From a virus (lineage: Duplodnaviria; Heunggongvirae; Uroviricota; Caudoviricetes), in IMG/VR virus record IMGVR_UViG_3300024268_000001: a stretch of 64,000 bases of DNA, one strand, 5' to 3'. The notes beneath the pieces are model-generated. The model was not told the DNA's origin. It made no database searches and saw only the letters and a program-made list of their open reading frames with translations. The position numbers and the translations under genes were made by a program. Below, piece by piece: positions 4,413 to 58,395 of the stretch (position 1 is its first letter; every line of letters starts with the position of its first letter).

Positions 4413-5600
4413 ATGAAGATTGATTTATCGACTATCAAAAATGACCTCCTCACTTCTGGTATGAAACTCGCTTCCGCTATCGAAAGCAAGGGTTACGAAG
4501 CATATCTGGTTGGCGGTTGCGTTCGTGACATGGTTCGTTGGACTATTGGCCAATGTGGTTTTCCGGATATTCACGATATTGACATCAGCACGAACATGCC
4601 TATCGATGAACTTCAGAAAAACTTCAAAACTGCCAGTAACAATGGCGAAGCTCACGGCACTATTCTGGTTTTCCAGGACGGTGAGCCTTTTGAAGTGACT
4701 CAGTTCCGTACCGATGGCGCTTATACCGATGGTCGTCACCCGGATTCAATCAAGTTCGCCAAGACTTTCAAGGAAGACTGCTTACGCCGCGATTTTACTA
4801 TCAACGCAATGGGTCTTACCGGTCAGGGTGAAGTCATTGACTATTACGGTGGTATCGATGATGTTACGAACGGCATTATCCGAGCTGTCGGTAAGGCAGA
4901 AGACCGTTTTGCTGAAGATTATCTCAGAATTTTCCGCGGTGTTCGTTTCATGGTCAACTTCGACTATTCTTTGGCTGATAGTACCTATGAAGCGATGAAG
5001 ACAACCGTTGATACTTATACTTATAAGATTAACTCTCTGTCTTATCCTCGTATTCGTGATGAAATCAGCAAGGTCAAGAATCCTTCTAAGAATCTCGCTT
5101 TGTTTTTCACGACACTGTATCGTACCGGTATTCTGAAATACTTGGTTACTTTCGAAGATGTTGATATTCCGGGTCTGATTGCACGTTTAGAATCTGTAAA
5201 TCATCTCACTGCGGATAACATCTTTGCGGTTATCGCTTTCGGCGAATACGACGTAATGTTACATCGTCTTGCTGCTACTCGAGAAGATTCTCGTTTGCTC
5301 AAGTGGTATTATTACATGCTCAAGAAGCTGAAAGAACCTAACGAAAATACAAGCTGGGACACTATTGTTAAATTCGTCGAAGGTGATTACAAAACTCTCC
5401 TCGAACTGTCCAAGATTGTTCCTGCCTGGTATAACAGAATTCCTATCGCTTTGAAGCTTAAAAAGGATAAACCCGATTTACATGCTATCTCTGAAAGAGT
5501 TCAGAACGAATTTCATGTTAAACCAGGTCCTAAGTTCGGTGCAGCTGTTAGCTACCTGCTCGAAGAGGCTTACGAAGCAAAAGCAAGGCATCTTCAATAA
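4413..5600 (+). CDS. cca: tRNA nucleotidyltransferase (CCA-adding enzyme) / poly(A) polymerase family
   Basis: 'LVGGCVRDMV' (GGxVRD) followed by 'DIDIST'. These are the class II nucleotidyltransferase head-domain signatures. 395 aa. Confidence 0.8.
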   Translation: MKIDLSTIKNDLLTSGMKLASAIESKGYEAYLVGGCVRDMVRWTIGQCGFPDIHDIDISTNMPIDELQKNFKTASNNGEAHGTILVFQDGEPFEVTQFRTDGAYTDGRHPDSIKFAKTFKEDCLRRDFTINAMGLTGQGEVIDYYGGIDDVTNGIIRAVGKAEDRFAEDYLRIFRGVRFMVNFDYSLADSTYEAMKTTVDTYTYKINSLSYPRIRDEISKVKNPSKNLALFFTTLYRTGILKYLVTFEDVDIPGLIARLESVNHLTADNIFAVIAFGEYDVMLHRLAATREDSRLLKWYYYMLKKLKEPNENTSWDTIVKFVEGDYKTLLELSKIVPAWYNRIPIALKLKKDKPDLHAISERVQNEFHVKPGPKFGAAVSYLLEEAYEAKARHLQ

Positions 5601-12204: not shown

Positions 12205-12285
12205 CTTTTGTTTATGCATATAATATAGTAAAAATATTCATATTTGTCAACCTAAAAAATAAAAGGCTGACTTGCGTTAACCTTT
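12205..12285 (-). promoter_or_regulatory. sigma70-like promoter plus a degenerate copy of the conserved hairpin element
   Basis: Minus strand reads ggTTGACAaatatgaatatttttacTATATT. Upstream lies 'ggttaacgcaagtcagcc', a variant of the recurring GGTTGACGAAAGTCAGCC element. Confidence 0.5.
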
Positions 12286-12314
12286 TACCCTCACACATCC
12301 AATATTCTTTTTTC

Positions 12315-14243
12315 TTACTTCTTTGTTTCGGAGAACAAATCAATAAGAGTGTCCTTGCTCAACTGAGTCAAATCAAGTCCAACTTCAGAATCCTTATCGG
12401 AATCGTCAACAAATGTAAAGCCTGCTTTTTCAAGAATCGGCTTCAGGTTGACGAACGAACGACACTTATTCTTGAGGTTTTCAATATACACGTCTGCATA
12501 TTCATGATTTGGCACACGTCCACCACCTTGAGTAAGGTCCATGAGGAATACCTTATTGTCTACAATAAGTGCACACTGCTTTTCGCGTTCATTATCAACT
12601 GGAATGATAAATTCAGCGAGAACATTGTTCGGATCCACCTTTACATCCACACGCTGGCTATAATAAGCATCTTTCTTAAGCTTCTTCTCTTGACGAGCAA
12701 CGAAGAACTTAAACTGAGACTTAGGAGAACCATTGTACTGGTTTACCGATACCTTGCCATCAGGACACTTACAGTCAATGTAGAACAATTCTGTTGCTTC
12801 CGGACGAGCTGTAGTCATATCACCCGAGTAAATGATCTTATTCTCATGGTCCTTGTAACTTGCGTTCCAACCATAAGTACCTCCATTAATGTCATACATA
12901 TGAAGGTCAAAATCCTGGGTTCCCCATTCTCCACGCCAATAGATACCAACAACGTTGTGGTCGTCGGACATATCAACGGAAGTGCCAAACGGATAATTAC
13001 CGATGAAGTTCTTTTCAGAAGTCGGCATTGTCAGATTGACATGCTGAGGATAACGAACAGTACATGCCTTATCCTTGATAGACTTGACCAACGAATCTTC
13101 AAGAAGATTGTAGACAACCATCAAGTAGGAATTCAATTCCTGATTAGGCACCGGAGCATCCTTACGAACCCACATCTTGCCGTTACGAATTACATACATC
13201 TTTCCGCTAGCATTCTGGAGCTTAGCGAGAATACCCTGCATGAGCGTGACCTTCTTGAAATTGGTGATTTCACCCTTTGCAAGACGTTCACGAACTTCGT
13301 CCAGCTTCTTGTGTTCAGAAAGTACAGTTTCCCAGAAACCTGCAGTAAACGGCTTATGGTCAGTAACAGCCAAACGACGGATATGGTTAATAACCGAGGA
13401 GTTTGTCTTCTGTCCAACAACAACGGCCTTAAGCTTTGCTGCGGCCTTTCTGAAAGCTTCATTCTTGAAAACTGCCGGCTTACCGTCAACCTTTTGGTTC
13501 TTGAACGCTAAGAATAACGGCTTGAAACGATAGAAAATCGAAGCGAGAGCGTGTAGCTGCTCATCCGACAACTTCGTAAAGTCGACAGTTTCTGCCTTTT
13601 CCTTAATGGCCTTGATAGTCTTTCGGTCCTTGATAAGCATGGCGCTGCCAGTTGCCTTAAAGACGAAATAACGTAACATGTTGAACGGGTCCTTGCCGTA
13701 GATACCTGTTGCATCCATCAATGCTATGGAAGCTTCCTTATTCTTGATGGAATCGACGTCGAGTCCATAAGTATTGAAACGCTTATCTTGCGTAATGAAG
13801 TTCACAAGGACATTAATGGTTTCAGTTTCAAGGGCAATCCCGGACTGGAGCATCTTTACACAGCGTGTATAAATTTCCTCGTCAGTCGCAGGCATAATAA
13901 CCTTGAATGAATTGTACGGAATTTCTACGTCCGGAGCGTTGTTTGGAATATACGCATCGCCCGTATAATTTGTGCCATAAGTAGAGGCATAATGAAGAAG
14001 TTGATCTACCAACAGTTCAAAACGCGTCTTGGACGTAATGTCAGACCACTTAGCATAAAACGTCTTATTGTAATTGGTCTTAGCTTCAGCATTCACCCAG
14101 TCAAGGGCAAGCTTCGAGCAACAGTCGGGATGAATAATCCAACCATACTTTGCTGATTCTGCGTTAACCTCTTCAAAAGAGCGCTTAGAGTTACCTTCTG
14201 CCTTAGGCATGACATTGAACATTGTAATCAACTTAAGATTCAT
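12315..14243 (-). CDS. large hypothetical protein (642 aa)
   Basis: Long uninterrupted ORF with RBS 'gaggaaaaatt'. No motif recognised. Confidence 0.6.
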   Translation of the reverse strand: MNLKLITMFNVMPKAEGNSKRSFEEVNAESAKYGWIIHPDCCSKLALDWVNAEAKTNYNKTFYAKWSDITSKTRFELLVDQLLHYASTYGTNYTGDAYIPNNAPDVEIPYNSFKVIMPATDEEIYTRCVKMLQSGIALETETINVLVNFITQDKRFNTYGLDVDSIKNKEASIALMDATGIYGKDPFNMLRYFVFKATGSAMLIKDRKTIKAIKEKAETVDFTKLSDEQLHALASIFYRFKPLFLAFKNQKVDGKPAVFKNEAFRKAAAKLKAVVVGQKTNSSVINHIRRLAVTDHKPFTAGFWETVLSEHKKLDEVRERLAKGEITNFKKVTLMQGILAKLQNASGKMYVIRNGKMWVRKDAPVPNQELNSYLMVVYNLLEDSLVKSIKDKACTVRYPQHVNLTMPTSEKNFIGNYPFGTSVDMSDDHNVVGIYWRGEWGTQDFDLHMYDINGGTYGWNASYKDHENKIIYSGDMTTARPEATELFYIDCKCPDGKVSVNQYNGSPKSQFKFFVARQEKKLKKDAYYSQRVDVKVDPNNVLAEFIIPVDNEREKQCALIVDNKVFLMDLTQGGGRVPNHEYADVYIENLKNKCRSFVNLKPILEKAGFTFVDDSDKDSEVGLDLTQLSKDTLIDLFSETKK

Positions 14244-15504: not shown

Positions 15505-15535
15505 AAAATTCTCCTAATATAATTTTATATTATAT

Positions 15536-16054
15536 TTATATAATTATATTATTCCGAATTTTTTCTATAAGTATATCCAACTCTTTTCTTTTTAAAATAA
15601 TAACATTATTTTTTATCATGCATTCTTGTTTTTCCAGTTGTAATTCTTTTGTAAATGGATTTATTAATTGATTATTATCATTAAAGAAAAAATCTCCTTT
15701 AACTTCATAAAATTTACCATTTATAATAAAATCTGGCTTATATTTATGTTCTTGTTCTTCTTTAATATAAGTAAACGTAATTTTTGGATGATATTCAAAC
15801 ACATTCTTACTGGACTGTAATGCTTCATATAATTCATATTCCCAGTGAGAATCGAAATATATATCATTATAATAAAAACCATATACTGTATGTGATTGTG
15901 TATTTGGATTTTGACCGGGATTTTTATAACCAGTTTTTTCATAATATGTTTGCTGACATTTAGCAAATGATTCAGGATTCGACCAATTATGGTAATACCC
16001 TGTTTTTCTAAAATATTCTTCAGAACGTTGTTTTAAATGTTCTGGATTTTTCAT
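15536..16054 (-). CDS. tandem-repeat protein (about 23-aa repeat 'xxYFxKTGYYHNWSNPES')
   Basis: Two repeat units follow the annotated ATG. A further 1.5 units continue in frame upstream to the TAA of the zinc-finger ORF at 16160. The true start or boundary is therefore uncertain. Confidence 0.5.
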   Translation of the reverse strand: MKNPEHLKQRSEEYFRKTGYYHNWSNPESFAKCQQTYYEKTGYKNPGQNPNTQSHTVYGFYYNDIYFDSHWEYELYEALQSSKNVFEYHPKITFTYIKEEQEHKYKPDFIINGKFYEVKGDFFFNDNNQLINPFTKELQLEKQECMIKNNVIILKRKELDILIEKIRNNIII

Positions 16055-17562: not shown

Positions 17563-18716
17563 TAGAACACATATCCTTCACGAGATTTACCGGTTGTAAC
17601 ATTACGCAAGATAGTCGGAATAATTTCACCAGCCTTCGTAATAATAACTTCATGACCGATTTCGATGCCCATATATTCAAGCATGTCAATATTGCACATA
17701 TTTGCACGCTGAACTGTAGTTCCGCAAAGTTCAACAGGTTCAACTACTGCAACCGGAGTCAAATTGCCATTCTTGATAGACCATTCAATGTTAATGAGCT
17801 TGGTCTGAGCAAGAGAATACTTCGGCTTGAGTGCAATCGAGAATTCCGGCAAATAATTGGTTTCAAGATCTTCATAATCAATCAAAGACGTCTTCCAAAC
17901 AAGACCGTCAATCTGATAATCACGTTCTTCATGCCAAATCTGGTCCATAAGAGCGACAGCCTTTTCACCGTTCATGGTTTTAAGGTCGTAAATCTTGTAG
18001 TCAACAACATCAAAACCCTGGTTTTTCATCCAATCAAGCATATCAGACTGAAGTCGGAAATGACGCTTGGTGTTAGAGGCATAGCGAGCTTCATAAACCT
18101 TGATATTAAGCTTTTCACAATCTGCACCGTCGAGATGCTTCATAATACCAGAAGCAGCATTTCGGCAGTTCTTATACTTCGGGAAATACTTTTCCTTAAC
18201 GGACTTGTAAAGCAAAATTTCGCCGCGAATAGTTCCTGTAAAATCCTTATCGACTTTCTTGACGAGACCATTCATCTTAAGAATATTATTGGTAATGTCG
18301 TCACCGTATGTACCATCACCACGGGTAGTACCCTGAACGAACTTTCCATCGACGTATTTAAGCGCAATAGAGCAGCCATCGAGCTTCAAAGGAGCAACGA
18401 CATATTCATGACCATTCATACGGCACTTATTGAACCAGACATCCATTTCTGGAGCCGTATTGGCCTTATTCTGAGAACCCATGATAATATCATGCTTGAC
18501 TTTTTCAAAACCTTCAGTATGGTCCTTACCAACTTCCTTCAAAACATCAGAATCAGGATATTTAGTCTTCAGTTCATCCCAGAGTGCATCAAATTCAATG
18601 TCGCTCATGATAGGAGAATCGGAATTATAATAGGCATCTTGTGCCTGACGGATTTTTGCTTCAAGTTCGTTCTTATTCATGTGATACAATATAGTAAAAA
18701 ATATAGGCTTTGTCAA
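17562..18716 (-). CDS. ligA: NAD-dependent DNA ligase (LigA adenylation + OB domains, short form without BRCT)
   Basis: N-terminal Ia-like 'DAYYNSDSPIMSDIEFDALWDEL'. Motif I 'PLKLDGCSIALKY'. 'TTRGDGTYGDDIT' matches LigA 'ATRGDGttGEDIT'. Confidence 0.8.
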   Translation of the reverse strand: MTKPIFFTILYHMNKNELEAKIRQAQDAYYNSDSPIMSDIEFDALWDELKTKYPDSDVLKEVGKDHTEGFEKVKHDIIMGSQNKANTAPEMDVWFNKCRMNGHEYVVAPLKLDGCSIALKYVDGKFVQGTTRGDGTYGDDITNNILKMNGLVKKVDKDFTGTIRGEILLYKSVKEKYFPKYKNCRNAASGIMKHLDGADCEKLNIKVYEARYASNTKRHFRLQSDMLDWMKNQGFDVVDYKIYDLKTMNGEKAVALMDQIWHEERDYQIDGLVWKTSLIDYEDLETNYLPEFSIALKPKYSLAQTKLINIEWSIKNGNLTPVAVVEPVELCGTTVQRANMCNIDMLEYMGIEIGHEVIITKAGEIIPTILRNVTTGKSREGYVF

Positions 18717-18735
18717 CCTATATTTTAGTTAAAGA
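18700..18735 (-). promoter_or_regulatory. sigma70-like promoter
   Basis: Minus strand reads ggTTGACAaagcctatattttttacTATATTgtatcacATG. Confidence 0.55.
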
Positions 18736-18984: not shown

Positions 18985-19360
18985 CTAATGCATGTTCGAT
19001 TTCATAAGCTTCCGTTTGATTCTTTACATACATTTGGGCTTTCTGAAAATCTTTTCCGTATTTTTGGTATAAATCGTAAAGCATATCTGTAGCGACATCC
19101 ATACCAGGATGTCTAGTATAAAACTCGTTCAATCTATAATTCGGTTTTAAATTAGTTTCAATGATATATGACATTCCGTGTTCCCACATATTTTCTATAC
19201 GAAAACCATTTCCAATCATTGCCTGTGCATATTCATACGCATGGTCACCAATCATTTTATGGTTTTCGACTATTTCTTTATAATAGCAACAACGCATTAC
19301 GTCAGTTACGTAATCTTTCCAGTCTTCTTTAGTTTTAAAATAATCTAAAAAACTAAGCAT
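18950..19360 (-). CDS. hypothetical protein
   Basis: 136-aa ORF. Confidence 0.45.
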   Translation of the reverse strand: MLSFLDYFKTKEDWKDYVTDVMRCCYYKEIVENHKMIGDHAYEYAQAMIGNGFRIENMWEHGMSYIIETNLKPNYRLNEFYTRHPGMDVATDMLYDLYQKYGKDFQKAQMYVKNQTEAYEIEHALDDKYDSGNTQI

Positions 19361-19361
19361 A

Positions 19362-19718
19362 TTATAAATTGTCCAAAGAATTTAATGTGTTAAAATACTC
19401 GATAAAAGCTCTTCGTTGGTCATCATCACGTAATTTAAATTTTTGAGTACCAATATAGACAGTTTTTGATATATCAATATTCTTTACATCAATTTGAGAC
19501 TTAGACTTTCGGCATTCACCCCAAATTTTATCACATTTACGTTTTGACGGTGGAGCCGGAGTAAAATAAAATCGACTTTTGAAATGAATTTCTAAAGACT
19601 TAGGTGAACCTGAACCAGCTAACTTTTCTCGCCATCGTCTAAATACATCATTCCAATCATATTCCCAGCTAATATCGGAAACCTTATAAATATGTCCATC
19701 TATTTTCAGCTCTACCAT
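19362..19718 (-). CDS. hypothetical protein
   Basis: 118-aa ORF. Confidence 0.45.
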   Translation of the reverse strand: MVELKIDGHIYKVSDISWEYDWNDVFRRWREKLAGSGSPKSLEIHFKSRFYFTPAPPSKRKCDKIWGECRKSKSQIDVKNIDISKTVYIGTQKFKLRDDDQRRAFIEYFNTLNSLDNL

Positions 19719-19719
19719 A

Positions 19720-20619
19720 TTAAAGTCCGGTTTGTCTTCCAGAGAAATTAACAGAACCTCTACCTTCTACTGTAAGGTAATCATCATAACTGCGCCATTC
19801 GTTTTCCTTTCCTGCATGACGAACGAAAGAAATATCACCAGTAAAATCCTTAATTACTGTAGCACACCAGTCTTTCTTCTTAAATTCTTCAACGGCATTC
19901 TTATCAAGCAACGGTTCATCAAGCGGATAAACACATACCATACCCGCATCTGCACAGAACTGTCCAATTTCTTCCTTTGTATCTAAATCGAATACAGTAC
20001 AAGACCAATCGCCATAAAGCGTATCAGTGCACATTCCAGACTTGATAGATTCAGCCTTGGAAACCCAATCATGGTCATCATTTACGATATAGCAAGGATC
20101 CGTGATAATAATATCCTTATGCTCGAAATGCATTGTTCTCGGATGTTTAATTTGATATTCTCGACGAAGAATAAATGCAATCAAATTCCAATAATCATGA
20201 GCAAATCCAAGTAATCGTTTCTTTCGCCATGTTTCAGCGGTATAATTTTTAGCTTTTTCTTTTGTACCGTCTGCACGGGTAATAAACATGTCATCATATT
20301 CCATATCATATGCAATATTCCAGTCAAGCTTTTGACACAGATTAGCCCTACGCTGGCATTCTTCATAACCGAGCTTATAGTGATATTTCTTGATATGTAA
20401 TTTCTTAAATTCAGAGCATTTAATTTTACGAAGTTCGTCATTTCGGTTAACCCAATAACGCATATTTTCTACTTCGCGCTTAGCTTTAAGAACCTCTTCA
20501 AGTTCTGCGCCTTTAAGCAAGCCCTTATCTGCCATACAGAACTTACACATAAAATTCTTAACATCCTTAACGCCTTTGGCACAATATTCGCCACCACATA
20601 CAATACACTTTGCTGTCAT
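19720..20619 (-). CDS. hypothetical protein with N-terminal Cys4 cluster
   Basis: N-terminus 'CIVCGGEYC...CKFC'. 299 aa. Promoter element at 20651-20680. Confidence 0.5.
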   Translation of the reverse strand: MTAKCIVCGGEYCAKGVKDVKNFMCKFCMADKGLLKGAELEEVLKAKREVENMRYWVNRNDELRKIKCSEFKKLHIKKYHYKLGYEECQRRANLCQKLDWNIAYDMEYDDMFITRADGTKEKAKNYTAETWRKKRLLGFAHDYWNLIAFILRREYQIKHPRTMHFEHKDIIITDPCYIVNDDHDWVSKAESIKSGMCTDTLYGDWSCTVFDLDTKEEIGQFCADAGMVCVYPLDEPLLDKNAVEEFKKKDWCATVIKDFTGDISFVRHAGKENEWRSYDDYLTVEGRGSVNFSGRQTGL

Positions 20620-20650
20620 TAAAAACTCCTTTTATAATTTTGTAATATAG

Positions 20651-20680
20651 AAAAAGGGGAGACTTTCGTCAACCCCTATA
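20651..20680 (-). promoter_or_regulatory. conserved promoter/hairpin element, copy 1
   Basis: Plus strand reads aaaaaggggaGACTTTCGTCAAcccctat. On the minus strand this gives GGTTGACGAAAGTC with flanking complementary A/G and C/T runs. Confidence 0.5.
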
Positions 20681-20881
20681 ATTCGGGTACATTCTGCAAG
20701 TGTCCCAAATATTTGCCTGTTCTTCATCTGACAAATAAATTGTCTGGTCTTCCGGAACTGACTTTCCTTCCAATCGATTCATAAATGAATTACGCATTTT
20801 TAAAATAGCATCTTGTCGTTCATCAATGCCATTGATACACATGTCGAATTTTTCAGCTAACTGTTGTGCTTTGGATTTCAT
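20669..20881 (-). CDS. hypothetical small protein
   Basis: 70-aa ORF. Its first ~12 nt overlap the conserved promoter/hairpin element at 20651-20680. Confidence 0.4.
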   Translation of the reverse strand: MKSKAQQLAEKFDMCINGIDERQDAILKMRNSFMNRLEGKSVPEDQTIYLSDEEQANIWDTCRMYPNYRG

Positions 20882-20893
20882 TCTTGTTCTCCA

Positions 20894-21322
20894 TTAATAA
20901 AGTTCTTTTGCAAAAAATTCTTTAGTAGCACTTTGCATAGCAACGGCTTTCCAATCCGATACAGTTTTGGTATTCATCCATTTATCCATATCATCAATCA
21001 TACATTGAGTTTTAGTCTTCAAACCAACAGACTTCAACAATTCACGTTGACGCCATTCATTAAAGTCTCGCTTTTTAGCATCTTGTTTTGCTCTGTATGC
21101 CAAAACCGCGGCTTCACCTTGTCTCTTTCGTCTTTCTCGTTTTTCTACACCAGTTTCCGTATCTGACAAAAGGTCATCGAATTCTTCAATCAGCTTTCCA
21201 AGCTTGTAATCTACACTATTTCGATAATCTTTTTGGAAAATGCATTCTAACATGCCTTGCATGTACAGAATAACAGCACCTATAAGAAGGACGCAAGCTG
21301 CAGAAATAATGATTGTTGCCAT
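20894..21322 (-). CDS. membrane protein (N-terminal TM)
   Basis: N-terminus 'MATIIISAACVLLIGAVILYM'. Confidence 0.5.
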   Translation of the reverse strand: MATIIISAACVLLIGAVILYMQGMLECIFQKDYRNSVDYKLGKLIEEFDDLLSDTETGVEKRERRKRQGEAAVLAYRAKQDAKKRDFNEWRQRELLKSVGLKTKTQCMIDDMDKWMNTKTVSDWKAVAMQSATKEFFAKELY

Positions 21323-21346
21323 GATGAACTCCTCTTGTTTATGTTC

Positions 21347-21386
21347 ATAATATAGAAAAAGGGCCGACTTTCGTCAACCCTTTATT
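21347..21386 (-). promoter_or_regulatory. conserved promoter/hairpin element, copy 2
   Basis: Plus strand reads cataatatagaaaaagggccGACTTTCGTCAAccctttatt. Confidence 0.5.
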
Positions 21387-21410
21387 ATTATAGGAGAAAA
21401 TATATACTTA

Positions 21411-23051
21411 TTAGCGACGACGGCGACGAGAAAGTTCAGCAATAACTGTCGGATCGTTCATCATGTCCGAAAGGCTACGTCCAATAGAAGTATTAGCTTC
21501 AGCCGGTTCCTTAGTCTTGTCAACATTCGGAGTTTCCGGACGAGCTTCAGCCTTAGGTTCATTTACGACTTCTGCTTCGGTCTTTTCAACCTTTGGAGCA
21601 CCGGAAACACCAGCGAGTCGGGCACCGAACATAGAACCGAGAACAGTCTTGAGGTCCATACCGAGAGAATCGGTCAAACCGCTAGAAATCTGAGTAAGCG
21701 TCTTGGTAATATCGCCGGTGAGCTTTGCAGTACCGCTTTCACCGTACATATTGATGTTACCAATCTTTTCCATCGGCTTAGCAACTGCACCAGCGATAGC
21801 CGGGAGCTGTTCGAAATACTTTTCAATAGTCTTGAGCTGCATTTCCTGACGAGCTGCATCACCATACTTCTTCATGGCTTCAGCCTTCTGGTCAAGAGCT
21901 GCTGCTTCTGCAAGACCCTTAGCCTTTACAGCATCAGCTTCAGCTTCACCCTTAGCCTTAGTAGCTGCAGCTTCAGCGAAAGCCTTTTCCTTATCAGCTT
22001 CAGCCTTGGCGATAATTGCCTTAGCTTGCTGCTGCTGGGTAAAGAGTGCTGCTTCAGCTTCCTTCTGCTGCTTATAAAGTTCAGCATCAGAACGCTGCAT
22101 CTGAGCCTGCTTATCGGCTTCAGCCTTCTTCTGAATTTCAGCTTCGAGTTCCTTCTGACGGACAGCTACCATGCGTTCACGAATTTCAATCTGCTTTTCC
22201 TGCTTTGCAACTTCTGCAGCTGCTGCAGTAATATTGATGGTCTTCTGCTGTTCCTGCTTCTGAATTTCATAAGCGGCATCAGCTTCGGCCTTCTTAGTAT
22301 CAGAAATTCGCTTAAGGTCAGCCTTCTTAACTTCGAGGTCGTTCTGCTTCTGAGCGATTTCAAGGTTTGCTGCAACCTGAGCATCGTTTGCTGTCTTCGC
22401 TGCTTCAGCCTGAGCAATCTTCACGTCACGTTCTGCATTTGCTCGAGAAATTGATGCAGCCTTCTGAATTGCTACAGCCTTATCAACACCGAGGTTTTCA
22501 ATTACCTTACCGTCGTCCGAGAAGTTCTGAATATTGAAGGTCTTAACGATAATACCGAGCTTTTCAAGATCTGGAATAGCATTTTCAAGAACCTTCTCAG
22601 AAACCTGCTTTCGGTCCGTAACCATGTCGACAAGATTCATCTGGCCGACAATCTCACGCATATTACCCTCAAGCACGTCAACAATCATCGCCTTAATCTG
22701 TTCAATCGGCTTATTGAGGAAGTTCTGGGCAGCTTTCTTAATTGCTTCAGGTTCATCAGAAATCTTTGCATTAACAACAGCGTCAACTGTTACATTAATG
22801 TAGTCCTTGGTCGGAACTGCCTGCTTAGTCTTGACGTCAATCGGAATCAACTTCAAGCTAAGAACGTCAGCACGTTCAAGGAACGGGATCTTGAAACCGG
22901 CATGCCCGATAATTGTTCGAAGCTGTCGGAAACCCGAAATAATAATTACTTCATCCGGCGCCGCCTTAATATAAGACGTAATGAAGAGGATAACGAGGAA
23001 AAGTACGAGCAGGCCGATACCCGCACCGATGAGGATATTTGAACTAAGCAT
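21411..23051 (-). CDS. flotillin-like SPFH/band-7 domain protein (YqiK-like)
   Basis: N-terminal TM. SPFH-like 'PDEVIIISGFRQLR...' region. Then a long Ala/Glu/Lys/Gln-rich coiled coil (AEAAKTANDAQVAANLEIAQKQNDLEV...). 546 aa. Confidence 0.75.
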   Translation of the reverse strand: MLSSNILIGAGIGLLVLFLVILFITSYIKAAPDEVIIISGFRQLRTIIGHAGFKIPFLERADVLSLKLIPIDVKTKQAVPTKDYINVTVDAVVNAKISDEPEAIKKAAQNFLNKPIEQIKAMIVDVLEGNMREIVGQMNLVDMVTDRKQVSEKVLENAIPDLEKLGIIVKTFNIQNFSDDGKVIENLGVDKAVAIQKAASISRANAERDVKIAQAEAAKTANDAQVAANLEIAQKQNDLEVKKADLKRISDTKKAEADAAYEIQKQEQQKTINITAAAAEVAKQEKQIEIRERMVAVRQKELEAEIQKKAEADKQAQMQRSDAELYKQQKEAEAALFTQQQQAKAIIAKAEADKEKAFAEAAATKAKGEAEADAVKAKGLAEAAALDQKAEAMKKYGDAARQEMQLKTIEKYFEQLPAIAGAVAKPMEKIGNINMYGESGTAKLTGDITKTLTQISSGLTDSLGMDLKTVLGSMFGARLAGVSGAPKVEKTEAEVVNEPKAEARPETPNVDKTKEPAEANTSIGRSLSDMMNDPTVIAELSRRRRR

Positions 23052-23090
23052 TTATGTTCCTTTTGTTATGTGTTTTTGTTTAGTTAAAAT

Positions 23091-23831
23091 CTAATCGTTC
23101 AGCCATGAGTTTTCCATTGCAATAAAGATACAACATATTACAATAATAACTATCGAGAAAATTATCCAGAAATACAATACTGTATGTTTCCAGCTAAAAT
23201 CCTCTACTGCTTGATCGATTTTTACATTGTCACGATATTCTGCATCATTCATTCGATGATTATCGATATTTGCATATACCGTTCCAGTAAAACTTAATGG
23301 GCGACAATAATAAACATATCGTTTATTATGTGCGAAATTGATTGTCTTTACATAATGACCGCTTGGCAATTCCGGAAACTGACCGTAGTAAAAGTCTTTC
23401 TTAATAAAATTAACTTTATCTACATTCCAGTCTTTTGCTCCATGATAGTCCCATGTCCAATAGACCTTAGTATGACAGCTACGTGTCTTTCCAGAACCAG
23501 TACAAACAAGCTTCGTATGCATCGTATAGACCTCGAGCACTCGATGGACTGACATATACTTACCTGGCAAACCGTCGTCTGTAACACTGCCTATCGCGGA
23601 AACAGTTCCGTATGCCAAAGTATGCCCAGCATTAGTATTGAATGCATATTGAAACTGTGTAGAATCGTTATCGATTTTCACAGCCTGATTGTACTTCGCA
23701 TTATGGTCATCTTGCCAAAGATCCATCCTATTACCTACGTAGAAACCTACTGCTAGGGAAATAAGAGCGAATACAAGCGCTACAATAACTTCACGCTGAG
23801 TTACTTCAATATTGGTATCACCAATATACAT
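23091..23831 (-). CDS. membrane protein (TM near both termini)
   Basis: 'VIVALVFALISLAVGFYV' near the N-terminus and 'VLYFWIIFSIVIIVICCIFIAM' near the C-terminus. Confidence 0.5.
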   Translation of the reverse strand: MYIGDTNIEVTQREVIVALVFALISLAVGFYVGNRMDLWQDDHNAKYNQAVKIDNDSTQFQYAFNTNAGHTLAYGTVSAIGSVTDDGLPGKYMSVHRVLEVYTMHTKLVCTGSGKTRSCHTKVYWTWDYHGAKDWNVDKVNFIKKDFYYGQFPELPSGHYVKTINFAHNKRYVYYCRPLSFTGTVYANIDNHRMNDAEYRDNVKIDQAVEDFSWKHTVLYFWIIFSIVIIVICCIFIAMENSWLND

Positions 23832-24388
23832 TAATTCTTTTCCTTAAGAAGTCCTGTGGGTGCGTCTACTGGCGCATTTGCAAATTCAAGAACCTTATAG
23901 TCCTTTTCCTGATAACCTAGAATACTCAAACAGATGTTTGACGGGAACATACGAACATGCTGATGATATTCGGTTACATTTTTATTATAATACTTACGAT
24001 GCGACGCAATTCGATTTTCAGTCATGGATAATTCATTCATGTACTGCTTATAATTTTCTATTGAACGCAATTCTGGATAACGTTCTACAACACCACGGAT
24101 ATATGCAGAAGCATTAACATTTCCGTTGCCTTCTGCTGGTGTACGAGCCTGTGATAGCTGTACCAAAACTTCGGCTTCATGCTTGTTATACGACATTACT
24201 GCTTCTGCCAAGTTAACAAGCAAGCCTGCACGTCGATTATATTCGGTGTTCAAATCGCTCAAAGAACTTTCAATGAGCAATTCCTTTGCGATTGCCTTAT
24301 TTTGTGAGCTTTGTACGCCAAACACTGTGGCGATAATCAATGCTACAATAATAGCAAGACTTGAAATTAAGACTGTTACGGGTTTCAT
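23831..24388 (-). CDS. lemA: LemA family protein
   Basis: N-terminal TM. 'EYNRRAGLLVNLAEAVMSYNKHEAEVLVQLSQAR' and 'TENRIASHRKYYNKNVTEYHQHVRMFPSNI' match the LemA family pattern. Confidence 0.65.
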   Translation of the reverse strand: MKPVTVLISSLAIIVALIIATVFGVQSSQNKAIAKELLIESSLSDLNTEYNRRAGLLVNLAEAVMSYNKHEAEVLVQLSQARTPAEGNGNVNASAYIRGVVERYPELRSIENYKQYMNELSMTENRIASHRKYYNKNVTEYHQHVRMFPSNICLSILGYQEKDYKVLEFANAPVDAPTGLLKEKN

Positions 24389-24400
24389 TGGTTTCTCCTA

Positions 24401-24913
24401 TTAGTTGTTATTTAAAAGCTTGGAAATGTCTTCAACGATCTTGGCTGTATCAAGTTCATTGACCGGCGGGTTATTTTTGCCTAAAAGTGTGTCTTCATTT
24501 CCTATATACTGGTAATCCCATGTAATAGACTTACCATCACTAGTTTCTAACATGGGAACAAGAACATGATAAATACCCTTATAGTTCTTATTCTTTTCAT
24601 TAAGCTGGTTTAAAATCTTATTTGCTGCGTTTTTAACAATTTTACTACGCATTTGAATACGGTCTGATTCAAATATCTTATTCAAAGAATCATTATAAGC
24701 CCAGAAACGTAATCTTTCATACCTAAACCATTCAACAACGTTAGGACCGTAATTTTCTCGCATATACGCTTCCATAGTCGGCGTAGTATCTGATTTTTCA
24801 GAAGTTCTTGAATTCAAAAGTTTTTCATAATGGTCAATATAAGCCTTAGCCGTAAGTCGATTGACCAAAACAGTCCATGCTACCAATAAACAAACAATAA
24901 TGACCGCTGCCAT
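24401..24913 (-). CDS. membrane-anchored protein
   Basis: N-terminus 'MAAVIIVCLLVAWTVLV'. RBS 'ggaga'. Downstream of promoter element copy 3. Confidence 0.5.
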   Translation of the reverse strand: MAAVIIVCLLVAWTVLVNRLTAKAYIDHYEKLLNSRTSEKSDTTPTMEAYMRENYGPNVVEWFRYERLRFWAYNDSLNKIFESDRIQMRSKIVKNAANKILNQLNEKNKNYKGIYHVLVPMLETSDGKSITWDYQYIGNEDTLLGKNNPPVNELDTAKIVEDISKLLNNN

Positions 24914-24943
24914 TTTAAATCTCCATGTTTACGTGGTAAATAT

Positions 24944-24977
24944 AAAAAAAGAGGTGACTTTCGTCAACCCCTTTTTA
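24944..24977 (-). promoter_or_regulatory. conserved promoter/hairpin element, copy 3
   Basis: Plus strand reads aaaaaaagaggtGACTTTCGTCAAcccctttttaat. On the minus strand this is TTGACG - N19 - TATATT, then RBS, then ATG. Confidence 0.55.
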
Positions 24978-24993
24978 ATAATTATTTACAGGC

Positions 24994-26304
24994 TTAGTCC
25001 TTAAATAGTGTATATCCTGCTTGTAAGAGAAGTTTCTTTGCTTCGTTGAAATCGTCGACATCAGAAATCTCTTCCTTATTTTTCCAGTATTCGGCTGTTT
25101 CCTTATCGAGCTGGTCAATCATGAATGTAGTGACTTCATCGAAAATCTTAAACAGCGTTCTTGTAGTATAGCCACGGTTGAATACAATCTTGAACTTATC
25201 GTAGAATTCCTGAATTGTACCGTCGAACGCACCCTTCTGACCGACATGGAACTTGCGGTTAAGCTGGTTCATGCAATACTTATAGCTTTCTACAACTTGT
25301 TTCTTGTCAACCTTACCAATCTTAGCCTTATCGACAGCACCATCTTCAGCGGCAACTGCTACAATCTTTCTAAGAACCGGAGTAGGAATCGAGAATCCAC
25401 CGAAGTTACCTTCAAAACTTCCGAAATAGCCGCCTTCATCATCATCATTGCTGAGATTACTGGAAGCGACACGGCGTTTTTCTTCAGCTTCAATCTGGTC
25501 AATATACTCTGGGTTATCAAGAGCTCTCATAATACGCTTTAATTCGCGGTCCAAAGCTGTTTCATCAGCGTTAATAACCTTACGGCCAAGCATTGCACCT
25601 ACAGTCTTTGCTACATAGAAGAATAGGCCCTTATTTCCGATAATACGTTCAGCATCCGGCATATTGAGAAGGTCTTCAAGTTTTTCAAGAACTGCTGTAC
25701 TGAGTGTATATTCCTTACCGTTCTTATGAGCACGGTGCCAATCCCAGAATTTGTCGATAGCACCTTCATAGCTGTTTTCAAAATCGTCGACAATATACGG
25801 AGCGAGCCAACGAGCAGCCTTTGAATAATCCTTTCCGAAAACTTCCTGAGCTTTTTCATGGTCATTCTTGAAAAGGTTAACAAGTTGCTGCATTGTCTTG
25901 TCTTGTGACGGGTCAAACGAAGAAAGATCCTTTCCTTCAGACTTGGCCTTGTAGTATGCCCAGAAAACATCAATCATATCGTCATATTTGTCTTTGTTTT
26001 CTTCGACATATGCCCAATCATCACCCAAATTAATATTATTCTTCTTTGCAATATCTTCGATTTTCCATTTCAAGTCAACTTTAGCGGTACTACCTTTCCA
26101 GAAGTTAATACCAAGCTTAGTTAACATATTTTCAGCGTCATCGCCATAATAACGTTCAATAAACTTGTAAACCTGGTTGGCTGTTACCTTTCCATTGTTT
26201 TCTGCAAAATCCTTAAGAATATAAAGGGCATTGGCAATGGAATCTCTTCCAAGAGTCCTATCAGAAGCTCTGGACATTTCATTAATAATATTCTTAAATC
26301 TCAT
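24994..26304 (-). CDS. hypothetical protein (436 aa)
   Basis: Long ORF. No motif recognised. Confidence 0.55.
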   Translation of the reverse strand: MRFKNIINEMSRASDRTLGRDSIANALYILKDFAENNGKVTANQVYKFIERYYGDDAENMLTKLGINFWKGSTAKVDLKWKIEDIAKKNNINLGDDWAYVEENKDKYDDMIDVFWAYYKAKSEGKDLSSFDPSQDKTMQQLVNLFKNDHEKAQEVFGKDYSKAARWLAPYIVDDFENSYEGAIDKFWDWHRAHKNGKEYTLSTAVLEKLEDLLNMPDAERIIGNKGLFFYVAKTVGAMLGRKVINADETALDRELKRIMRALDNPEYIDQIEAEEKRRVASSNLSNDDDEGGYFGSFEGNFGGFSIPTPVLRKIVAVAAEDGAVDKAKIGKVDKKQVVESYKYCMNQLNRKFHVGQKGAFDGTIQEFYDKFKIVFNRGYTTRTLFKIFDEVTTFMIDQLDKETAEYWKNKEEISDVDDFNEAKKLLLQAGYTLFKD

Positions 26305-26386
26305 AATAACCTCTATAACTATTTATAAAAGAAAGACTAGAACCCGAAAGTTCTAGTCTTGGATTAAATAGAGTAAATGAATAAAC

Positions 26387-32479: not shown

Positions 32480-32987
32480 AACTTATCCTTAACAATTAAA
32501 TATAGCAAAACTGTAACAAATAGTTTACAACCTATATATAAAAGTTCTATGATTTTTAAAACGACAGAATATTTTATTTTTAGTTAAAAAAATTTTTACA
32601 AAAACTTTCTATTATTGTTTTCACATATTCAAGTCTGATTCCTCGGAACGAAAACCAATCCAATGGAATTATCGGTAGAGGGTCAGCCATTGAAAACTTC
32701 AGATACGGGTTTTCCAGAAATGAGCTGGAATATCGTTTTGAAATATACTCGGTAACAGCTAGTGAAAGTATCAGCGAAGTACAGATTAGCAATCTGCACG
32801 TTTAGCCGCCATGGTTTTAACGGATGTAGCCGAAGTACAGGATGACCGCCTCGTAAGCCGTTATGTAAATCCCTAAAGATTGACGATGAAGCTTTATACC
32901 AAAAGTGGAATAGTCATAGTCTGGAAGTTCCTTCTAGGCTTATGATCTCTGAATCGCATTACCCAAAAGATAGAACAGATAAAAATA

Positions 32988-35900: not shown

Positions 35901-35970
35901 ATCATATTTATAAGTATAAAAAGAGCATAGAACTTTTCATCTATGCTCTTAAACTTAAAATTTATAGTTG

Positions 35971-42647: not shown

Positions 42648-42661
42648 GACTATAATATAAT

Positions 42662-42690
42662 AAAAAGGCTGACTTTCGTCAACCTTTTTT
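42662..42690 (-). promoter_or_regulatory. conserved promoter/hairpin element, copy 4
   Basis: Plus strand reads aaaaaggctGACTTTCGTCAAcctttttt. On the minus strand this is GGTTGACgaaagtcagcctttttatTATATTatagtcATG. Confidence 0.55.
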
Positions 42691-42710
42691 ATTTTAACTA
42701 TTACAGTGTG

Positions 42711-44408: not shown

Positions 44409-44434
44409 AATTGTTTCTCCTAATTTTTTATTAT

Positions 44435-44785
44435 TTATAGTTCCTTGGCCAGTTCCTTAACTGCGTCCTTGTATTTCTTGATAAGAATACGAGATTCCGC
44501 ACCGACTTCAAGCAAAGCCTGTCCAGCCTTAAAAATTCGCTTGTTTGCCTTCATCAATGTCTTGATTTTGCCCTTATTTTTACTTCCGGTAAGAGTGAAT
44601 GTTACTTCGCCTCCCTTAGAAACAGTAATAGAACCAATTTCTCCGGTTTCATCGGTACAAGTCATTGAATTGTCGACGATTTTAATCTTGGAGTCCCTAT
44701 AAAAACTGTACTTGAATCCAGCCTTTGTAAGAATATCCAAGATTTTGTTTAATTTTGGGTCAATTTCTTTAAAATCTCTAGTCAT
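44435..44785 (-). CDS. hypothetical protein
   Basis: 116-aa ORF. Confidence 0.45.
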   Translation of the reverse strand: MTRDFKEIDPKLNKILDILTKAGFKYSFYRDSKIKIVDNSMTCTDETGEIGSITVSKGGEVTFTLTGSKNKGKIKTLMKANKRIFKAGQALLEVGAESRILIKKYKDAVKELAKEL

Positions 44786-44802
44786 ATATTATTTATAGAA
44801 GG

Positions 44803-47065: not shown

Positions 47066-47125
47066 AATTTAAAATCCTCTATATTCTTATTTATAAAAAT
47101 TTTAAAAAGGCTCGTTTTTGCAAAA

Positions 47126-48672: not shown

Positions 48673-48692
48673 ATTATATTTATAAATTTTGA

Positions 48693-51167: not shown

Positions 51168-51199
51168 AATTATCCTCTGATTATATTTATAAACGAAAA

Positions 51200-53047: not shown

Positions 53048-53079
53048 TCCGGAATTCCTTTTAAAATCTTTTATATTAT

Positions 53080-53442
53080 TTATAAAGATTCAAAAGTTTC
53101 GAGATCCTTGGCGAAATGCTTACGGTTAGCCTTAATCCAGGATTTTATATCCTGAAGTGCCCTGTGCATATCGTTCCAATCGATAGTTGTACCCTTTGGG
53201 ACATCCTCTTCACGAATATCCATAGCCCAATTACCGGAATTGAACCTAAATGTATGATTATCAAGACTATCAGAAATACGGTCACACTCTTCAAGAGCCC
53301 AATCCGGGTATCTCTTGACAGTATCGACACAAAGTTTCAGAAGTGGGTTAAAAGTCGGCATCTGAAGGATGTTTTCCATAGTTCTAAAGCCAGTGAACTT
53401 TGCAATAGTGTAAAATCTTAGAATTTGTACAATCGGTCTCAT
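53080..53442 (-). CDS. hypothetical protein
   Basis: 120-aa ORF. Confidence 0.45.
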   Translation of the reverse strand: MRPIVQILRFYTIAKFTGFRTMENILQMPTFNPLLKLCVDTVKRYPDWALEECDRISDSLDNHTFRFNSGNWAMDIREEDVPKGTTIDWNDMHRALQDIKSWIKANRKHFAKDLETFESL

Positions 53443-54217: not shown

Positions 54218-54237
54218 ATCTTATTTATAAATATCGC

Positions 54238-56335: not shown

Positions 56336-56914
56336 TTAAATTGCGTCAGTACCAGAACGATTTTCGATAATCTTGAAGATTGCTTCAAGCTTCGGTTTTA
56401 AAGTTTCCTCTGCCTCGTCGAAATCTTCAGCCATATACGGAATCATTTCCTTGATGGCTTCTGTAACTTTAGCACGGATAGAATCCTCTTTTTCTATAAC
56501 TTCTGTTTCGCCCCAACCTGGGTCATAGGTTCCGAAATCACGTCCATCCCAGCTTGGTTCTTCGCCAGTATAGCGAACTTCGACTTCGATTGAATTACCG
56601 TCACCGCCTGTAGAATCATACTGCTCATCGAAATCCTTAACAAAACCAGGAAGGATCTCTTCGATTTTGGCGACTTCTTCCTTTGTAACGCCCAAGCGAC
56701 AAGTCAAATCAAAAGACTTCTTAAGCGGATTACCATGATAATCCAGCAATTTATCAATATAGATAGGAACTTTTACTGTGTCATCATTATAATGTTCACA
56801 GACATATCCGTTATTTTCCAAAATAATCAAAGATTCGCTTACTTTCATTATAACCTCATTTTTATTATTTATAGCATTGACGAAAAGTGAATCTCTTGCT
56901 ATATTTAGTAACAT
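56336..56914 (-). CDS. hypothetical acidic protein (192 aa)
   Basis: Lone minus-strand ORF between the two plus-strand blocks. Confidence 0.5.
   Translation of the reverse strand: MLLNIARDSLFVNAINNKNEVIMKVSESLIILENNGYVCEHYNDDTVKVPIYIDKLLDYHGNPLKKSFDLTCRLGVTKEEVAKIEEILPGFVKDFDEQYDSTGGDGNSIEVEVRYTGEEPSWDGRDFGTYDPGWGETEVIEKEDSIRAKVTEAIKEMIPYMAEDFDEAEETLKPKLEAIFKIIENRSGTDAI
56877..56905 (+). promoter_or_regulatory. sigma70-like promoter (TTGACG-N17-TATATT) for the array operon
   Basis: Sequence caTTGACGaaaagtgaatctcttgcTATATTtagtaacATG. The -35 region resembles the conserved GTTGACGAAAGT element. Confidence 0.55.
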
Positions 56915-57492: not shown

Positions 57493-57822
57493 ATGATTAA
57501 TGTTATTTTTACAAATGACGGATATACACAACAACATGATGTTGCTGAAATTGATAACGTCAATATAGACGAACATCCTAGTTTTGTAGAAGCATGTGAG
57601 CAAAAAGACATCGTTAATAATACCATGATAACTCTTACATGGAGATCTTCAGATTATCATGGATTATATGTTTTAAAGCTTGGAACATTTCCGCTTTATA
57701 AGGCATATTTAGAAATTGACGGAAAGAAATATATGTATACCGACATAATGAAAAATATTGAAAAATTCAAAGCCAGGATTGAACAGGAAAAAGTTAAACT
57801 TGCATTGGAGACATTAGCATGA
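57493..57822 (+). CDS. array family member 1 (conserved C-terminal helix)
   Basis: Ends '...YTDIMKNIEKFKARIEQEKVKLALETLA'. Its stop overlaps the next ATG. Confidence 0.6.
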   Translation: MINVIFTNDGYTQQHDVAEIDNVNIDEHPSFVEACEQKDIVNNTMITLTWRSSDYHGLYVLKLGTFPLYKAYLEIDGKKYMYTDIMKNIEKFKARIEQEKVKLALETLA

Positions 57823-58106
57823 TTAAGTTTACACTTGATGGTAGAAACTATGAAATCGAATCCATGCAAGATTTTTCTCTTTGGGTTCATTACGAATCAA
57901 AACATAGAAAACGAGAAAACTATATTAAAGCAGAAGTACGTCCTGTAGGTTATGAAGCACATCATGTTTTTGAACTGAGAAACGAAGATAGTATACAGAT
58001 TGACGATAAAAAGTTTGACCTTCCATATATTTGTGAACATTTTGATTTGATTAAATCTAAAATTTTACATAATCTTGAACTTAAATGCCTGGATAATTTA
58101 GCATGA
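57819..58106 (+). CDS. array family member 2
   Basis: Starts MIKF. Ends '...ICEHFDLIKSKILHNLELKCLDNLA'. Confidence 0.6.
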   Translation: MIKFTLDGRNYEIESMQDFSLWVHYESKHRKRENYIKAEVRPVGYEAHHVFELRNEDSIQIDDKKFDLPYICEHFDLIKSKILHNLELKCLDNLA

Positions 58107-58387
58107 TTAAACTTATTAGAGAATATCATTATTCGCGTTCAGATGACCATTATGTAGTAAAGCAACTGTTTGGTTTTGAAAAATCTAGTAATGGCATAAG
58201 TCTTTTCTTTGAAGACCAAATGGGAAAAAACCAAATGATAAATACAGCCGATACAGAAAAAACAGAAACAAAACTGTATATAAACGACATTCTTTATACA
58301 AACAAAGATATTATGTGGAAATTTGATAAAATTTCTGCACTGTTAACTCAAGATATAAATTTGACAGCTATTGAGTCTCTTCCATAG
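58103..58387 (+). CDS. array family member 3
   Basis: Starts MIKL. Ends '...KDIMWKFDKISALLTQDINLTAIESLP'. Confidence 0.6.
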   Translation: MIKLIREYHYSRSDDHYVVKQLFGFEKSSNGISLFFEDQMGKNQMINTADTEKTETKLYINDILYTNKDIMWKFDKISALLTQDINLTAIESLP

Positions 58388-58395
58388 AGGAATAT

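Follow-up and report, generated by a model that had tools for sequence, protein, structure and literature searches.

The tailed-phage record IMGVR_UViG_3300024268_000001 was analyzed over a stretch of 64,000 nt (the window), which is part of a ~225-kb contig (ERZ27248314 k141_2224112) of an uncultured rumen phage. A short intergenic element was found to recur in this window in four core copies, each read on the coding (minus) strand and each combining a predicted hairpin and U-tract with the two hexamers of a sigma70-type promoter. We propose, at a probability of roughly 0.8, that each copy is a composite terminator-promoter cassette in which the two signals are maximally overlapped, such that one gene group would be ended and the next restarted by the same DNA.

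Occurrence and anatomy of the element

The core copies were identified as four exact matches to the 14-mer GACTTTCGTCAACC on the plus strand at 20661-20674, 21366-21379, 24956-24969, and 42671-42684, with a fifth copy carrying two mismatches at 12269-12282. Five matches with at most two mismatches thus stand vs 0.30 expected, and none of 100 shuffles gave five. A covariance model built from 26 distinct copies (alignment A1, described below) was run across the whole window with its filters off and returned exactly four strong matches, all on the minus strand, at 21348-21391, 42653-42696, 24938-24981, and 20643-20686 (59-66 bits; E about 1e-11 to 1e-12). The remaining matches scored 25 bits or less, the top one being the antisense image of copy 4 (24.8 bits); the degenerate copies at 12261-12286 and 18687-18730 scored 18-20 bits. 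The four full copies described in a sequence-only reading of this DNA were thus confirmed by both searches, and the frame it had noted, an A-run and GG answered by CC and a T-run, was found in all four. The further sites listed in that reading held up in part: (i) the degenerate copy at 12269 has the two-mismatch 14-mer but a weak covariance-model score (19.8 bits); (ii) the variant at 18706 shares GGTTGAC with the core copies and nothing else, its hairpin being different (ATAGGTTGACAAAGCCTAT); and (iii) the 56877 site resembles a promoter and falls in the same broad class (TTGACGAAAAGT...TGCTATATT), yet lacks a hairpin and hence does not count as a copy of the element. Likeness among the copies was limited to ~35-44 nt, with flanks that do not align, and three of the core copies are clustered within 4.3 kb. 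Duplication of a promoter together with its gene was considered for copies 2 and 3 and rejected, since the proteins encoded downstream show no relationship (E = 4) and the flanks cannot be aligned past ~44 nt. Among the Rfam covariance models no family was found at the element, the sole gathering-score match in the window being the cow-rumen-2 RNA discussed below, and a literature search for the 12-mer of the element returned only unrelated primer sequences.

On the minus strand, the parts of every core copy follow the same order: an A-run, GG(G)(G)TTGAC, GAAA, GTC plus 4-5 nt complementary to GGTT, T5-7, and TATATT. In the predicted fold the GAC/GTC pair closes a GAAA tetraloop of the GNRA type, with a GCAA loop in the 12269 copy. 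The -35 hexamer TTGACG lies inside the 5′ arm of this hairpin, and the -10 hexamer TATATT is positioned exactly 17 nt downstream in four of four core copies, a fixed spacing that sharpens the 17-19 nt reported earlier. The 14-mer, which had been taken for an invariant loop, is composed instead of GG, the TTGAC of the -35, the GAAA loop, and the GTC that pairs with GAC, and so covers one arm of the stem, the loop of 4 nt, and the beginning of the opposite arm. When the six sites (four copies and two variants) were folded as minus-strand RNA, each was predicted to form a hairpin followed by a U-tract (-11.8 to -16.2 kcal/mol, z -2.3 to -6.4). The core four reach -13 to -16 kcal/mol, and the sense hairpin was more stable than the antisense in all 26 distinct copies (means of -14.9 vs -10.7 kcal/mol). 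An earlier description of the hairpin as weak, bidirectional, and terminator-like is therefore retained for its terminator-like shape, but neither for its weakness nor for its symmetry. Upstream of the -35, an A-rich tract spans columns 3-11 of alignment A1 (consensus AAAAAAA before GGG). In a consensus scan, copy 2 was flagged independently under both headings, terminator-like and promoter-like.

All core copies are intergenic, and all composite cassettes of the window lie 0-30 nt past a co-directional stop codon. Copy 1 (20644-20677; free energy of folding, dG, -13.2 kcal/mol, z -2.3; 59.0 bits) forms its hairpin from 20676 to 20656 (GGGG-UU-GAC GAAA GUC-U-CCCC) with a U-tract at 20655-20651, a -35 TTGACG at 20672-20667, and a -10 TATATT at 20649-20644; the stop codon (TGA) of the upstream 70-aa open reading frame (ORF) sits within TTGAC, and a Shine-Dalgarno site (AAAGGAG) is followed by ATG 20619 of a 299-aa gene, on which independent gene calls agree. 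Copy 2 (21349-21383; dG -16.2, z -4.2; 65.6 bits) lies between the gene of an SPFH/flotillin protein (21411-23051, upstream) and a 142-aa gene (ATG 21322, downstream), with a hairpin from 21383 to 21358 (11 pairs, five of them G-C, GAAA loop), a U-tract that continues into the -10, a -35 at 21377-21372, and a -10 at 21354-21349. Copy 3 (24939-24976; dG -14.4, z -5.1; 61.3 bits) has a hairpin from 24976 to 24946 with one U·C mismatch, a -35 at 24967-24962, and a -10 at 24944-24939; a 436-aa gene (24994-26304) lies upstream, and a 170-aa gene (ATG 24913), followed by a LemA gene, a 246-aa gene, and the SPFH/flotillin gene, lies downstream. The stem of copy 4 (42654-42689; dG -16.0, z -6.4; 63.4 bits) is perfect, running from 42689 to 42662, with a -35 at 42682-42677 and a -10 at 42659-42654; ATG 42647 of a 197-aa gene follows only 6 nt past the -10.

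Conservation and the promoter class

A pattern scan of viral contigs recovered the composite motif in 20 stretches on 16 contigs (12-415 kb), and a scan of genome contigs found the cassette on two contigs from rumen metagenome-assembled genomes (MAGs); viral and MAG contigs together provided the 26 distinct copies of alignment A1. The 5′ arm, both hexamers, and the 17-nt spacing were invariant in 26 of 26 copies, and the 3′ arm was variable (AGCCC, AACC, GGCCC, ACCTC, TCCCC, and others). Standard pairs nonetheless occupied 92.7% of the stem cells, compared with 24-58% when the partner columns were slid. The loop was GAAA (22 of 26 copies), GAGA, or GUAA, thus GNRA in every copy, as the collecting search required. 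The cassette of copy 4 and the copy in contigs L006, L008, and L012 were identical at 31 of 32 positions, the sole difference being an A to G change that turns a U-A pair into U-G; on these contigs the protein encoded downstream of the cassette is ~31% identical and the upstream gene differs. When the window was compared with a close relative (L020, 96.7% identical over 10 kb), the changes in copies 1 and 3 were found to preserve both the pairing and the 17-nt spacer. The element starts ~10 nt past the last tRNA gene of long tRNA arrays in related phages.

A wider promoter class was found to contain the element. The pattern TTGAC-N18-TATATT occurs 11 times in the window vs 0.12 expected, and always on the local coding strand, including the plus-strand block after 55,500, which bears out the earlier proposal of a promoter class for the minus-strand element; its promoter is of the sigma70 type and the class is recurrent. 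The GGTTGAC(A)...TATATT promoters were observed (i) in an unstructured form (0 to -3 kcal/mol); (ii) with unrelated hairpins (-11 to -19 kcal/mol) around the -35 and a T-run before the -10; and (iii) in tandem, as a terminator and then a promoter. Hairpin-less members carry TTGACA in 21 of 23 cases, and the GG before TTGAC is conserved there too; the element has TTGACG, not TTGACA, because its G is the first base of the GNRA loop. Since the same boxes exist without a hairpin or with unrelated hairpins, GAAAGTC appears to serve the hairpin and not -35 recognition, counter to the suggestion that it forms an extended -35. The stand-alone terminators of the window lack -35/-10 boxes.

The distance from the -10 to the ORF-opening ATG was examined for 84 distinct promoters of the class, collected from the window and related loci, and was found to be bimodal, at 6-7 nt with no Shine-Dalgarno site (23 of 84) or at ~17-30 nt with one (~33 of 84). 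With the ATG 6-7 nt past the -10, its A falls at the predicted start, and leaderless mRNAs are therefore predicted; so fixed a coupling is difficult to account for if transcription does not truly begin at this point. At copies 1-3, a GGAG-type site is present and the ATG falls 24-26 nt past the -10. A Shine-Dalgarno site is missing from copy 4 and from the 18716 variant, and leaderless mRNAs are predicted for the 197-aa gene of the former and the ligase gene of the latter. Leaderless-type sites on the minus strand of the window include 42659/42647, 18688/18680, 8630, and those with -35 starts at 31929 and 55230; on the plus strand, -35 starts are at 4377 (gene 4413-5600), 55562, 56877, and 59410, and many more sites are present in the other loci. 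Leaderless-type and Shine-Dalgarno-led genes are thus predicted side by side in the same phage.

Proposed function and alternative explanations

As a composite cassette, the element would act twice. A polymerase arriving from the upstream gene would transcribe the A-run, GG(G)UUGAC, the GNRA loop, GUCnnCC(C), and 5-7 U. Since this is how an intrinsic (Rho-independent) terminator is built, the transcript from upstream is expected to stop within the U-tract. The same DNA would be read as a near-consensus sigma70/sigmaA-type promoter, with the A-run at the UP-element position, TTGAC of the 5′ arm as the -35, the 3′ arm and T-run as the 17-nt spacer, and TATATT after the T-run as the -10. Transcription would restart ~7 nt past the -10, with a short Shine-Dalgarno leader at copies 1-3 and without a leader at copy 4 and the 18716 variant. 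The invariance of GGTTGACGAAAGTC would follow from this double duty in promoter and hairpin, with GG and TTGAC held by promoter recognition and GTC held by its pairing to GAC. In this manner, cassettes may split a gene-dense, one-directional region into short insulated transcription units, namely from 24967 to the terminator at 21383, from 21377 to the terminator at ~20676, from 20672 to the terminator at ~18726, and from 18716 onward, beginning with the ligase gene. The cassettes are probably read by the host primary-sigma polymerase early in infection, and an early, host-polymerase temporal class is plausible; both the host-sigma reading and the early timing are deduced from the consensus, with T4-type early promoters as the analogy (PMC2988021).

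Several points weigh against this explanation. Termination and initiation are both predictions from the sequence, the U-tract is interrupted (UUUUUCUAUAUU), and an internal mismatch or bulge is present in copies 1 and 3. The shuffle statistics, by the caveat of the tool itself, are inflated by the relatedness of the sequences. The loci were retrieved by a pattern that required GAAA, and the dominance of this loop is in part ascertainment because of it. Stem cells other than Watson-Crick include 30 G·U and no A·C, a contrast that is weakened because the fixed 5′ arm is rich in G and U, so that G·U results automatically from every 3′-arm transition; the five variable pairs hold 22 wobble cells vs 10 true mismatches. 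As to the polymerase, the promoters may be read by a phage-encoded sigma factor, and the cassette-bearing MAG contigs conflict on the host, being assigned to a Bacilli bacterium from goat rumen (L021, JAFSVH010000086.1) and to a Treponema sp. (L022, JAFNQK010000326.1). Mis-binning of phage contigs probably explains both MAG matches. L021, which shares 88-95% identity with the viral contigs L001 and L010, is either phage sequence that was sorted into a bacterial MAG or a pointer to the host.

The invariance of GGTTGACGAAAGTC in the four window copies and in the 26 distinct copies could also be explained by a protein that reads the DNA, the sequence being either an extended -35 or a stretch bound by a phage regulator or phage sigma factor, and marking a special temporal class, with an incidental hairpin. 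The GG that is kept before TTGAC in hairpin-less promoters would fit such a site, as would the perfect 7+4+7 inverted repeat of some copies, which has the typical shape of a dimer site. We consider this quite unlikely, as promoters with GGTTGAC/TATATT and without GAAAGTC have A/C-rich spacers or unrelated hairpins, and as the stem varies in length and extends into the A and T runs, which suits a hairpin and not a fixed protein site. By our own count in alignment A1, perfect palindromes are found in only 5 of 26 copies and the 3′ half-site GTCAACC in 5 of 26; with an invariant 5′ half and a variable 3′ half, a dimeric operator was rejected on this asymmetry. Substitutions in the 3′ half keep the RNA pairing (the G·U cells noted above) and break the DNA palindrome, and the binding site for a phage regulator suggested in the sequence-only reading gained no support. 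At the other extreme, the element might be a terminator only, with TTGAC and TATATT as by-products of AT-rich sequence; the window is 32-40% G+C, and TATATT is readable as a distal U-rich tail. This can hardly account for the exact 17-nt spacing with both hexamers invariant in every copy, for the excess of TTGAC-N18-TATATT over expectation, for an ATG placed at a fixed 6-7 nt or at 17-30 nt behind a Shine-Dalgarno site, or for stand-alone terminators in the same window that are without these boxes, and we regard it as very improbable. A conserved GNRA hairpin may instead suggest an RNA recognition site, such as a boxB-like antiterminator target or a processing or stabilizing site, with termination under temporal regulation. 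The loop and closing pairs are strongly conserved despite protein divergence to ~30% identity, and the 18716 variant has a GACAA pentaloop, which resembles the boxB loop of P22. However, the conserved positions are already accounted for by the -35 and the pairing, while AAAA, ACUA, AUUA, AUUU, and 5-7 nt loops that contain the -35 occupy the same position; the hairpin lies upstream of the start of its own promoter and has a U-tract after it, unlike nut sites; and no candidate binding protein was identified. An RNA site of this kind is quite unlikely.

Compatible with the terminator-promoter function, and additional to it, is the possibility that the repeats are mainly portable recombination sites, similar to the mobile regulatory cassettes termed promoter-early stem-loops (PeSLs). 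Near-identical islands of 32-44 nt stand beside unrelated flanks; the cassette of copy 4 also stands before the homologs of gene 42054-42647 in L006, L008, and L012, with another upstream neighbor, and the homology between L005 and L019 starts exactly at the 5′ edge of a cassette, two clear single cases; and such a role is documented for PeSLs (PMC2839356, PMC4122927). Moreover, 11 of 86 similarity breakpoints fell within 40 nt of a promoter element vs 3.7 expected under random placement (P about 0.002), an enrichment that is not relied on here because the breakpoints are non-independent (both partners were counted and some loci overlap on one contig) and because mosaicism at gene boundaries alone would place breakpoints in intergenic regions. 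Counter to this possibility, 75 of the 86 breakpoints are away from any element, no cassette-bounded indel was found among copies 1-3 when the window was compared with L020, and an identical stretch of 32-44 nt is on the short side for homologous recombination to work efficiently. We therefore hold a main role in recombination to be possible, at odds clearly below even, and the broader view of the cassettes as mobile regulatory modules across diverse uncultured 165-415 kb rumen phages to be tentative and rather doubtful. If true, recombination would move gene cassettes with their own terminator, promoter, and often leaderless start, and modular shuffling of the PeSL type would extend beyond T4-like phages.

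Genome context and comparison with known systems

Including the core copies, the window holds eight overlapped and two tandem cassettes, all on the minus strand. The variant composite at 18726-18688 (dG -11.8, z -5.3) has the hairpin AUAGGUU-GACAA-AGCCUAU with an A/U extension (18726 to 18698), a -35 TTGACA at 18716-18711, and a -10 at 18693-18688; the TAG stop of the upstream ORF abuts its -35, and ATG 18680 of a NAD-dependent DNA ligase gene lies 7 nt past the -10, in agreement with an independent 372-aa call. Three other composites of the second form differ in sequence. At 3772-3731 (dG -17.3; 17.8 bits), the hairpin GGCGGGUUU-ACAA-AAGCCCGUC (3772 to 3737) surrounds a -35 TTTACA (3759-3754) and is followed by UUUUAC and a -10 TATATT (3736-3731). 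At 8670-8630 (dG -15.3; 18.2 bits), the hairpin AAAAAUAAGGCAUUU-ACA-AAAUGCCUUAUUUUU (8670 to 8638) surrounds a -35 TTTACA (8658-8653), with a -10 TATATT at 8635-8630 and an ATG 6 nt later. At 10603-10564 (dG -11.4; 15.5 bits), the hairpin AAGGGCUU-ACA-AAGCCCUU (10603 to 10574) surrounds a -35-like CTTACA (10592-10587), and UAAUUUUGC with the TGn of an extended -10 precedes the -10 TATATT (10569-10564). The tandem variant at 12292-12222 (dG -13.8, z -4.1; 19.8 bits) consists of a terminator hairpin (12292 to 12255) with a GCAA (GNRA) loop, TTAAC replacing TTGAC, and a U-tract, after which a separate promoter, GGTTGACA-17-TATATT, is located at 12250-12222. In the second tandem arrangement (14617-14548), a terminator hairpin of 12 pairs with a U-tract (14617-14590) is followed by the promoter GGGGTTTACA-17-TGCTATATT at 14576-14548. 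A stand-alone terminator at 26360-26333 on the same strand has 12 pairs, a C(UUCG)G tetraloop, and then TTTATAAATA; stable tetraloops (GNRA, UUCG) are recurrent among the terminators of this phage.

Two further upstream motifs were observed. Hairpin-less promoters with A/C-rich spacers have the palindrome TTTAAC-N3-GTTAAA at the predicted start together with a conserved leader (GCAAAGRATGTTCCTAT), and this could be an operator-like site or a conserved 5′ untranslated region. It was found in the window at 14340-14290 (minus strand), upstream of a 642-aa gene (12315-14243), and on related contigs at L005 4797-4814, 8833-8850, and 10158-10175, L013 1729-1746, and L019 2183-2200 and 2428-2445. The second motif, TATAAATA, occurs 18 times in the window vs 9.9 expected, a count reached by 3 of 100 shuffles. 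By our reading, 11 minus-strand copies (15533-15540, 26320-26327, 35905-35912, 44432-44439, 44790-44797, 47088-47095, 48677-48684, 51184-51191, 53077-53084, 54222-54229, and 56866-56873) lie 4-29 nt before a start codon, four of them exactly 4 nt before ATG, and the motif is often preceded by an ordinary terminator hairpin. TATAAATA is the T4 late-promoter consensus, and it may represent a second (late or middle) promoter class.

The genes from 1 to ~55,500 are almost all on the minus strand, and an independent gene caller returned the same gene calls around the elements. The recognizable genes of the window are of early or metabolic type and encode a T4-type RNA ligase, the NAD-dependent DNA ligase, a CCA-adding enzyme, and a cytidylyltransferase-NUDIX fusion; also present are a dCMP deaminase, a dUTPase-like protein, an RNase H-like 5′-3′ exonuclease, a patatin, LemA, the SPFH/flotillin protein, an MFS transporter, and an M16 peptidase. 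No structural genes were found in the window. When 10 flanking proteins were searched, PHROGs returned no matches and Pfam left nine without a match, the SPFH/flotillin protein alone being recognized; no link between the element and a functional gene class was found. The unit bounded by copies 3 and 2 (21411-24913, minus strand) encodes the 170-aa protein, a LemA-family protein, the 246-aa protein, and a 546-aa SPFH/Band-7-flotillin protein; for a phage, such a membrane-associated module is unusual. A megablast search of 19000-26000 against 50,697 phage records gave no match. The best phage matches to the RNA ligase were <30% identical (Streptomyces, Bacillus, and Moorella phages, none T4-like), and no taxonomic placement is made because these matches are distant.

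On the plus strand, 57493-63399 holds ~20 tandem, tightly packed small ORFs of 93-128 aa, called an array operon in the sequence-only reading; 14 of them have paralogs inside the block, many start with MIK, MIR, or MIE, and promoters of the form TTGAC-17-TGCTATATT are at 56877, 59410, and 62302. A full-length match to Rfam family RF02947 (cow-rumen-2 RNA; 102.8 bits, E = 1e-18) was detected at 32773-32877 on the plus strand, opposite to all surrounding genes and in and next to a 239-nt gap between minus-strand ORFs; here this RNA is phage-borne. Large tRNA arrays are present on related phage contigs, where as many as 17 tRNA genes fall within 12-15 kb and Gly, Ala, Glu, and Leu genes are duplicated (L004 9-332; L005 3335-4761 and 7499-8280; L016 1672-2405; L019 697-1561 and 10686-14767; L017 11306-11846), and no tRNA genes were found in the window itself.

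The analysis provides a predicted transcription map for a ~225-kb rumen phage with almost no annotated genes, including unit boundaries, probable leaderless genes, and a probable early promoter consensus (A-run, GGTTGAC, 17 nt, TATATT). The mechanism proposed is conventional, and nothing would be overturned by it. It does suggest that large phages make more general use of overlapped terminator-promoter cassettes, which until now were described from T4-type phages, and gene shuffling mediated by such cassettes becomes testable in a second lineage. The 44-nt element is also a compact candidate for an insulator-plus-promoter part.

When compared with intrinsic terminators that have GNRA or UUCG tetraloops, the element is similar in (i) its G+C-rich stem of 8-12 pairs, 4-nt GNRA loop, and 5-7 U directly after; (ii) its position right after a co-directional stop codon or tRNA array; and (iii) the A-run 5′ of the stem, a form known from bidirectional terminators. 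It differs in that the 5′ arm is invariant as it doubles as the -35, and in that the U-tract runs into the -10 hexamer. With the T4 early promoters (UP/-35/TGn/-10; PMC2988021), the element and its class share an A-rich upstream tract, a consensus -35, 17-nt spacing, a near-consensus -10, and, in the members at 55562, 56877, 59410, and 10569, the TGn; the differences are a -10 of TATATT rather than TATAAT, the GG before the -35, and an ATG that is often at the predicted start.

The closest known system is the PeSL, a composite promoter/terminator cassette of the T4-type phages RB49/phi1, T4/PST, and KVP40/nt-1 (PMC2839356, PMC4122927). PeSLs are repeated intergenic cassettes of an AT-rich tract, a sigma70-like promoter, and a G-run/C-run stem-loop; they occur preferentially in variable regions and have been assigned a part in modular shuffling, and their promoter activity, terminator activity, and mini-circle formation have been shown experimentally (PMC2839356). 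The RB49/phi1 promoter is TTGACA-N17-TATAAT (PMC2839356, PMC4122927), and the nt-1/KVP40 stem has the consensus A3-4G3-loop-C3T3-4 (PMC4122927). The cassettes found here are likewise short, repeated, and intergenic, with an AT-rich tract, a near-consensus sigma70-type promoter, and a G-run/C-run stem-loop; they lie, with copies clustered, between small genes of unknown function in variable regions. Their AAAAGGG...CCCTTTT frame equals that of nt-1/KVP40, and the stem-loop just upstream of the promoter in PST and nt-1 has its counterpart at 12292-12222 and 14617-14548. In contrast to PeSLs, where the stem is placed in the -35/-10 interval, across the -10, or upstream, the stem of the four core copies encloses the -35 and the U-tract fills the spacer; the loop here is a GNRA tetraloop; and for some copies the mRNA is predicted to be leaderless, while a Shine-Dalgarno site and start codon form the 3′ end of PeSLs as described. 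The PeSLs, moreover, belong to T4-type phages and have activities established by experiment, while those of the present cassettes are predicted from sequence, in a phage whose T4-type hints are limited to RNA ligase and RNase H domains and the TATAAATA motifs.

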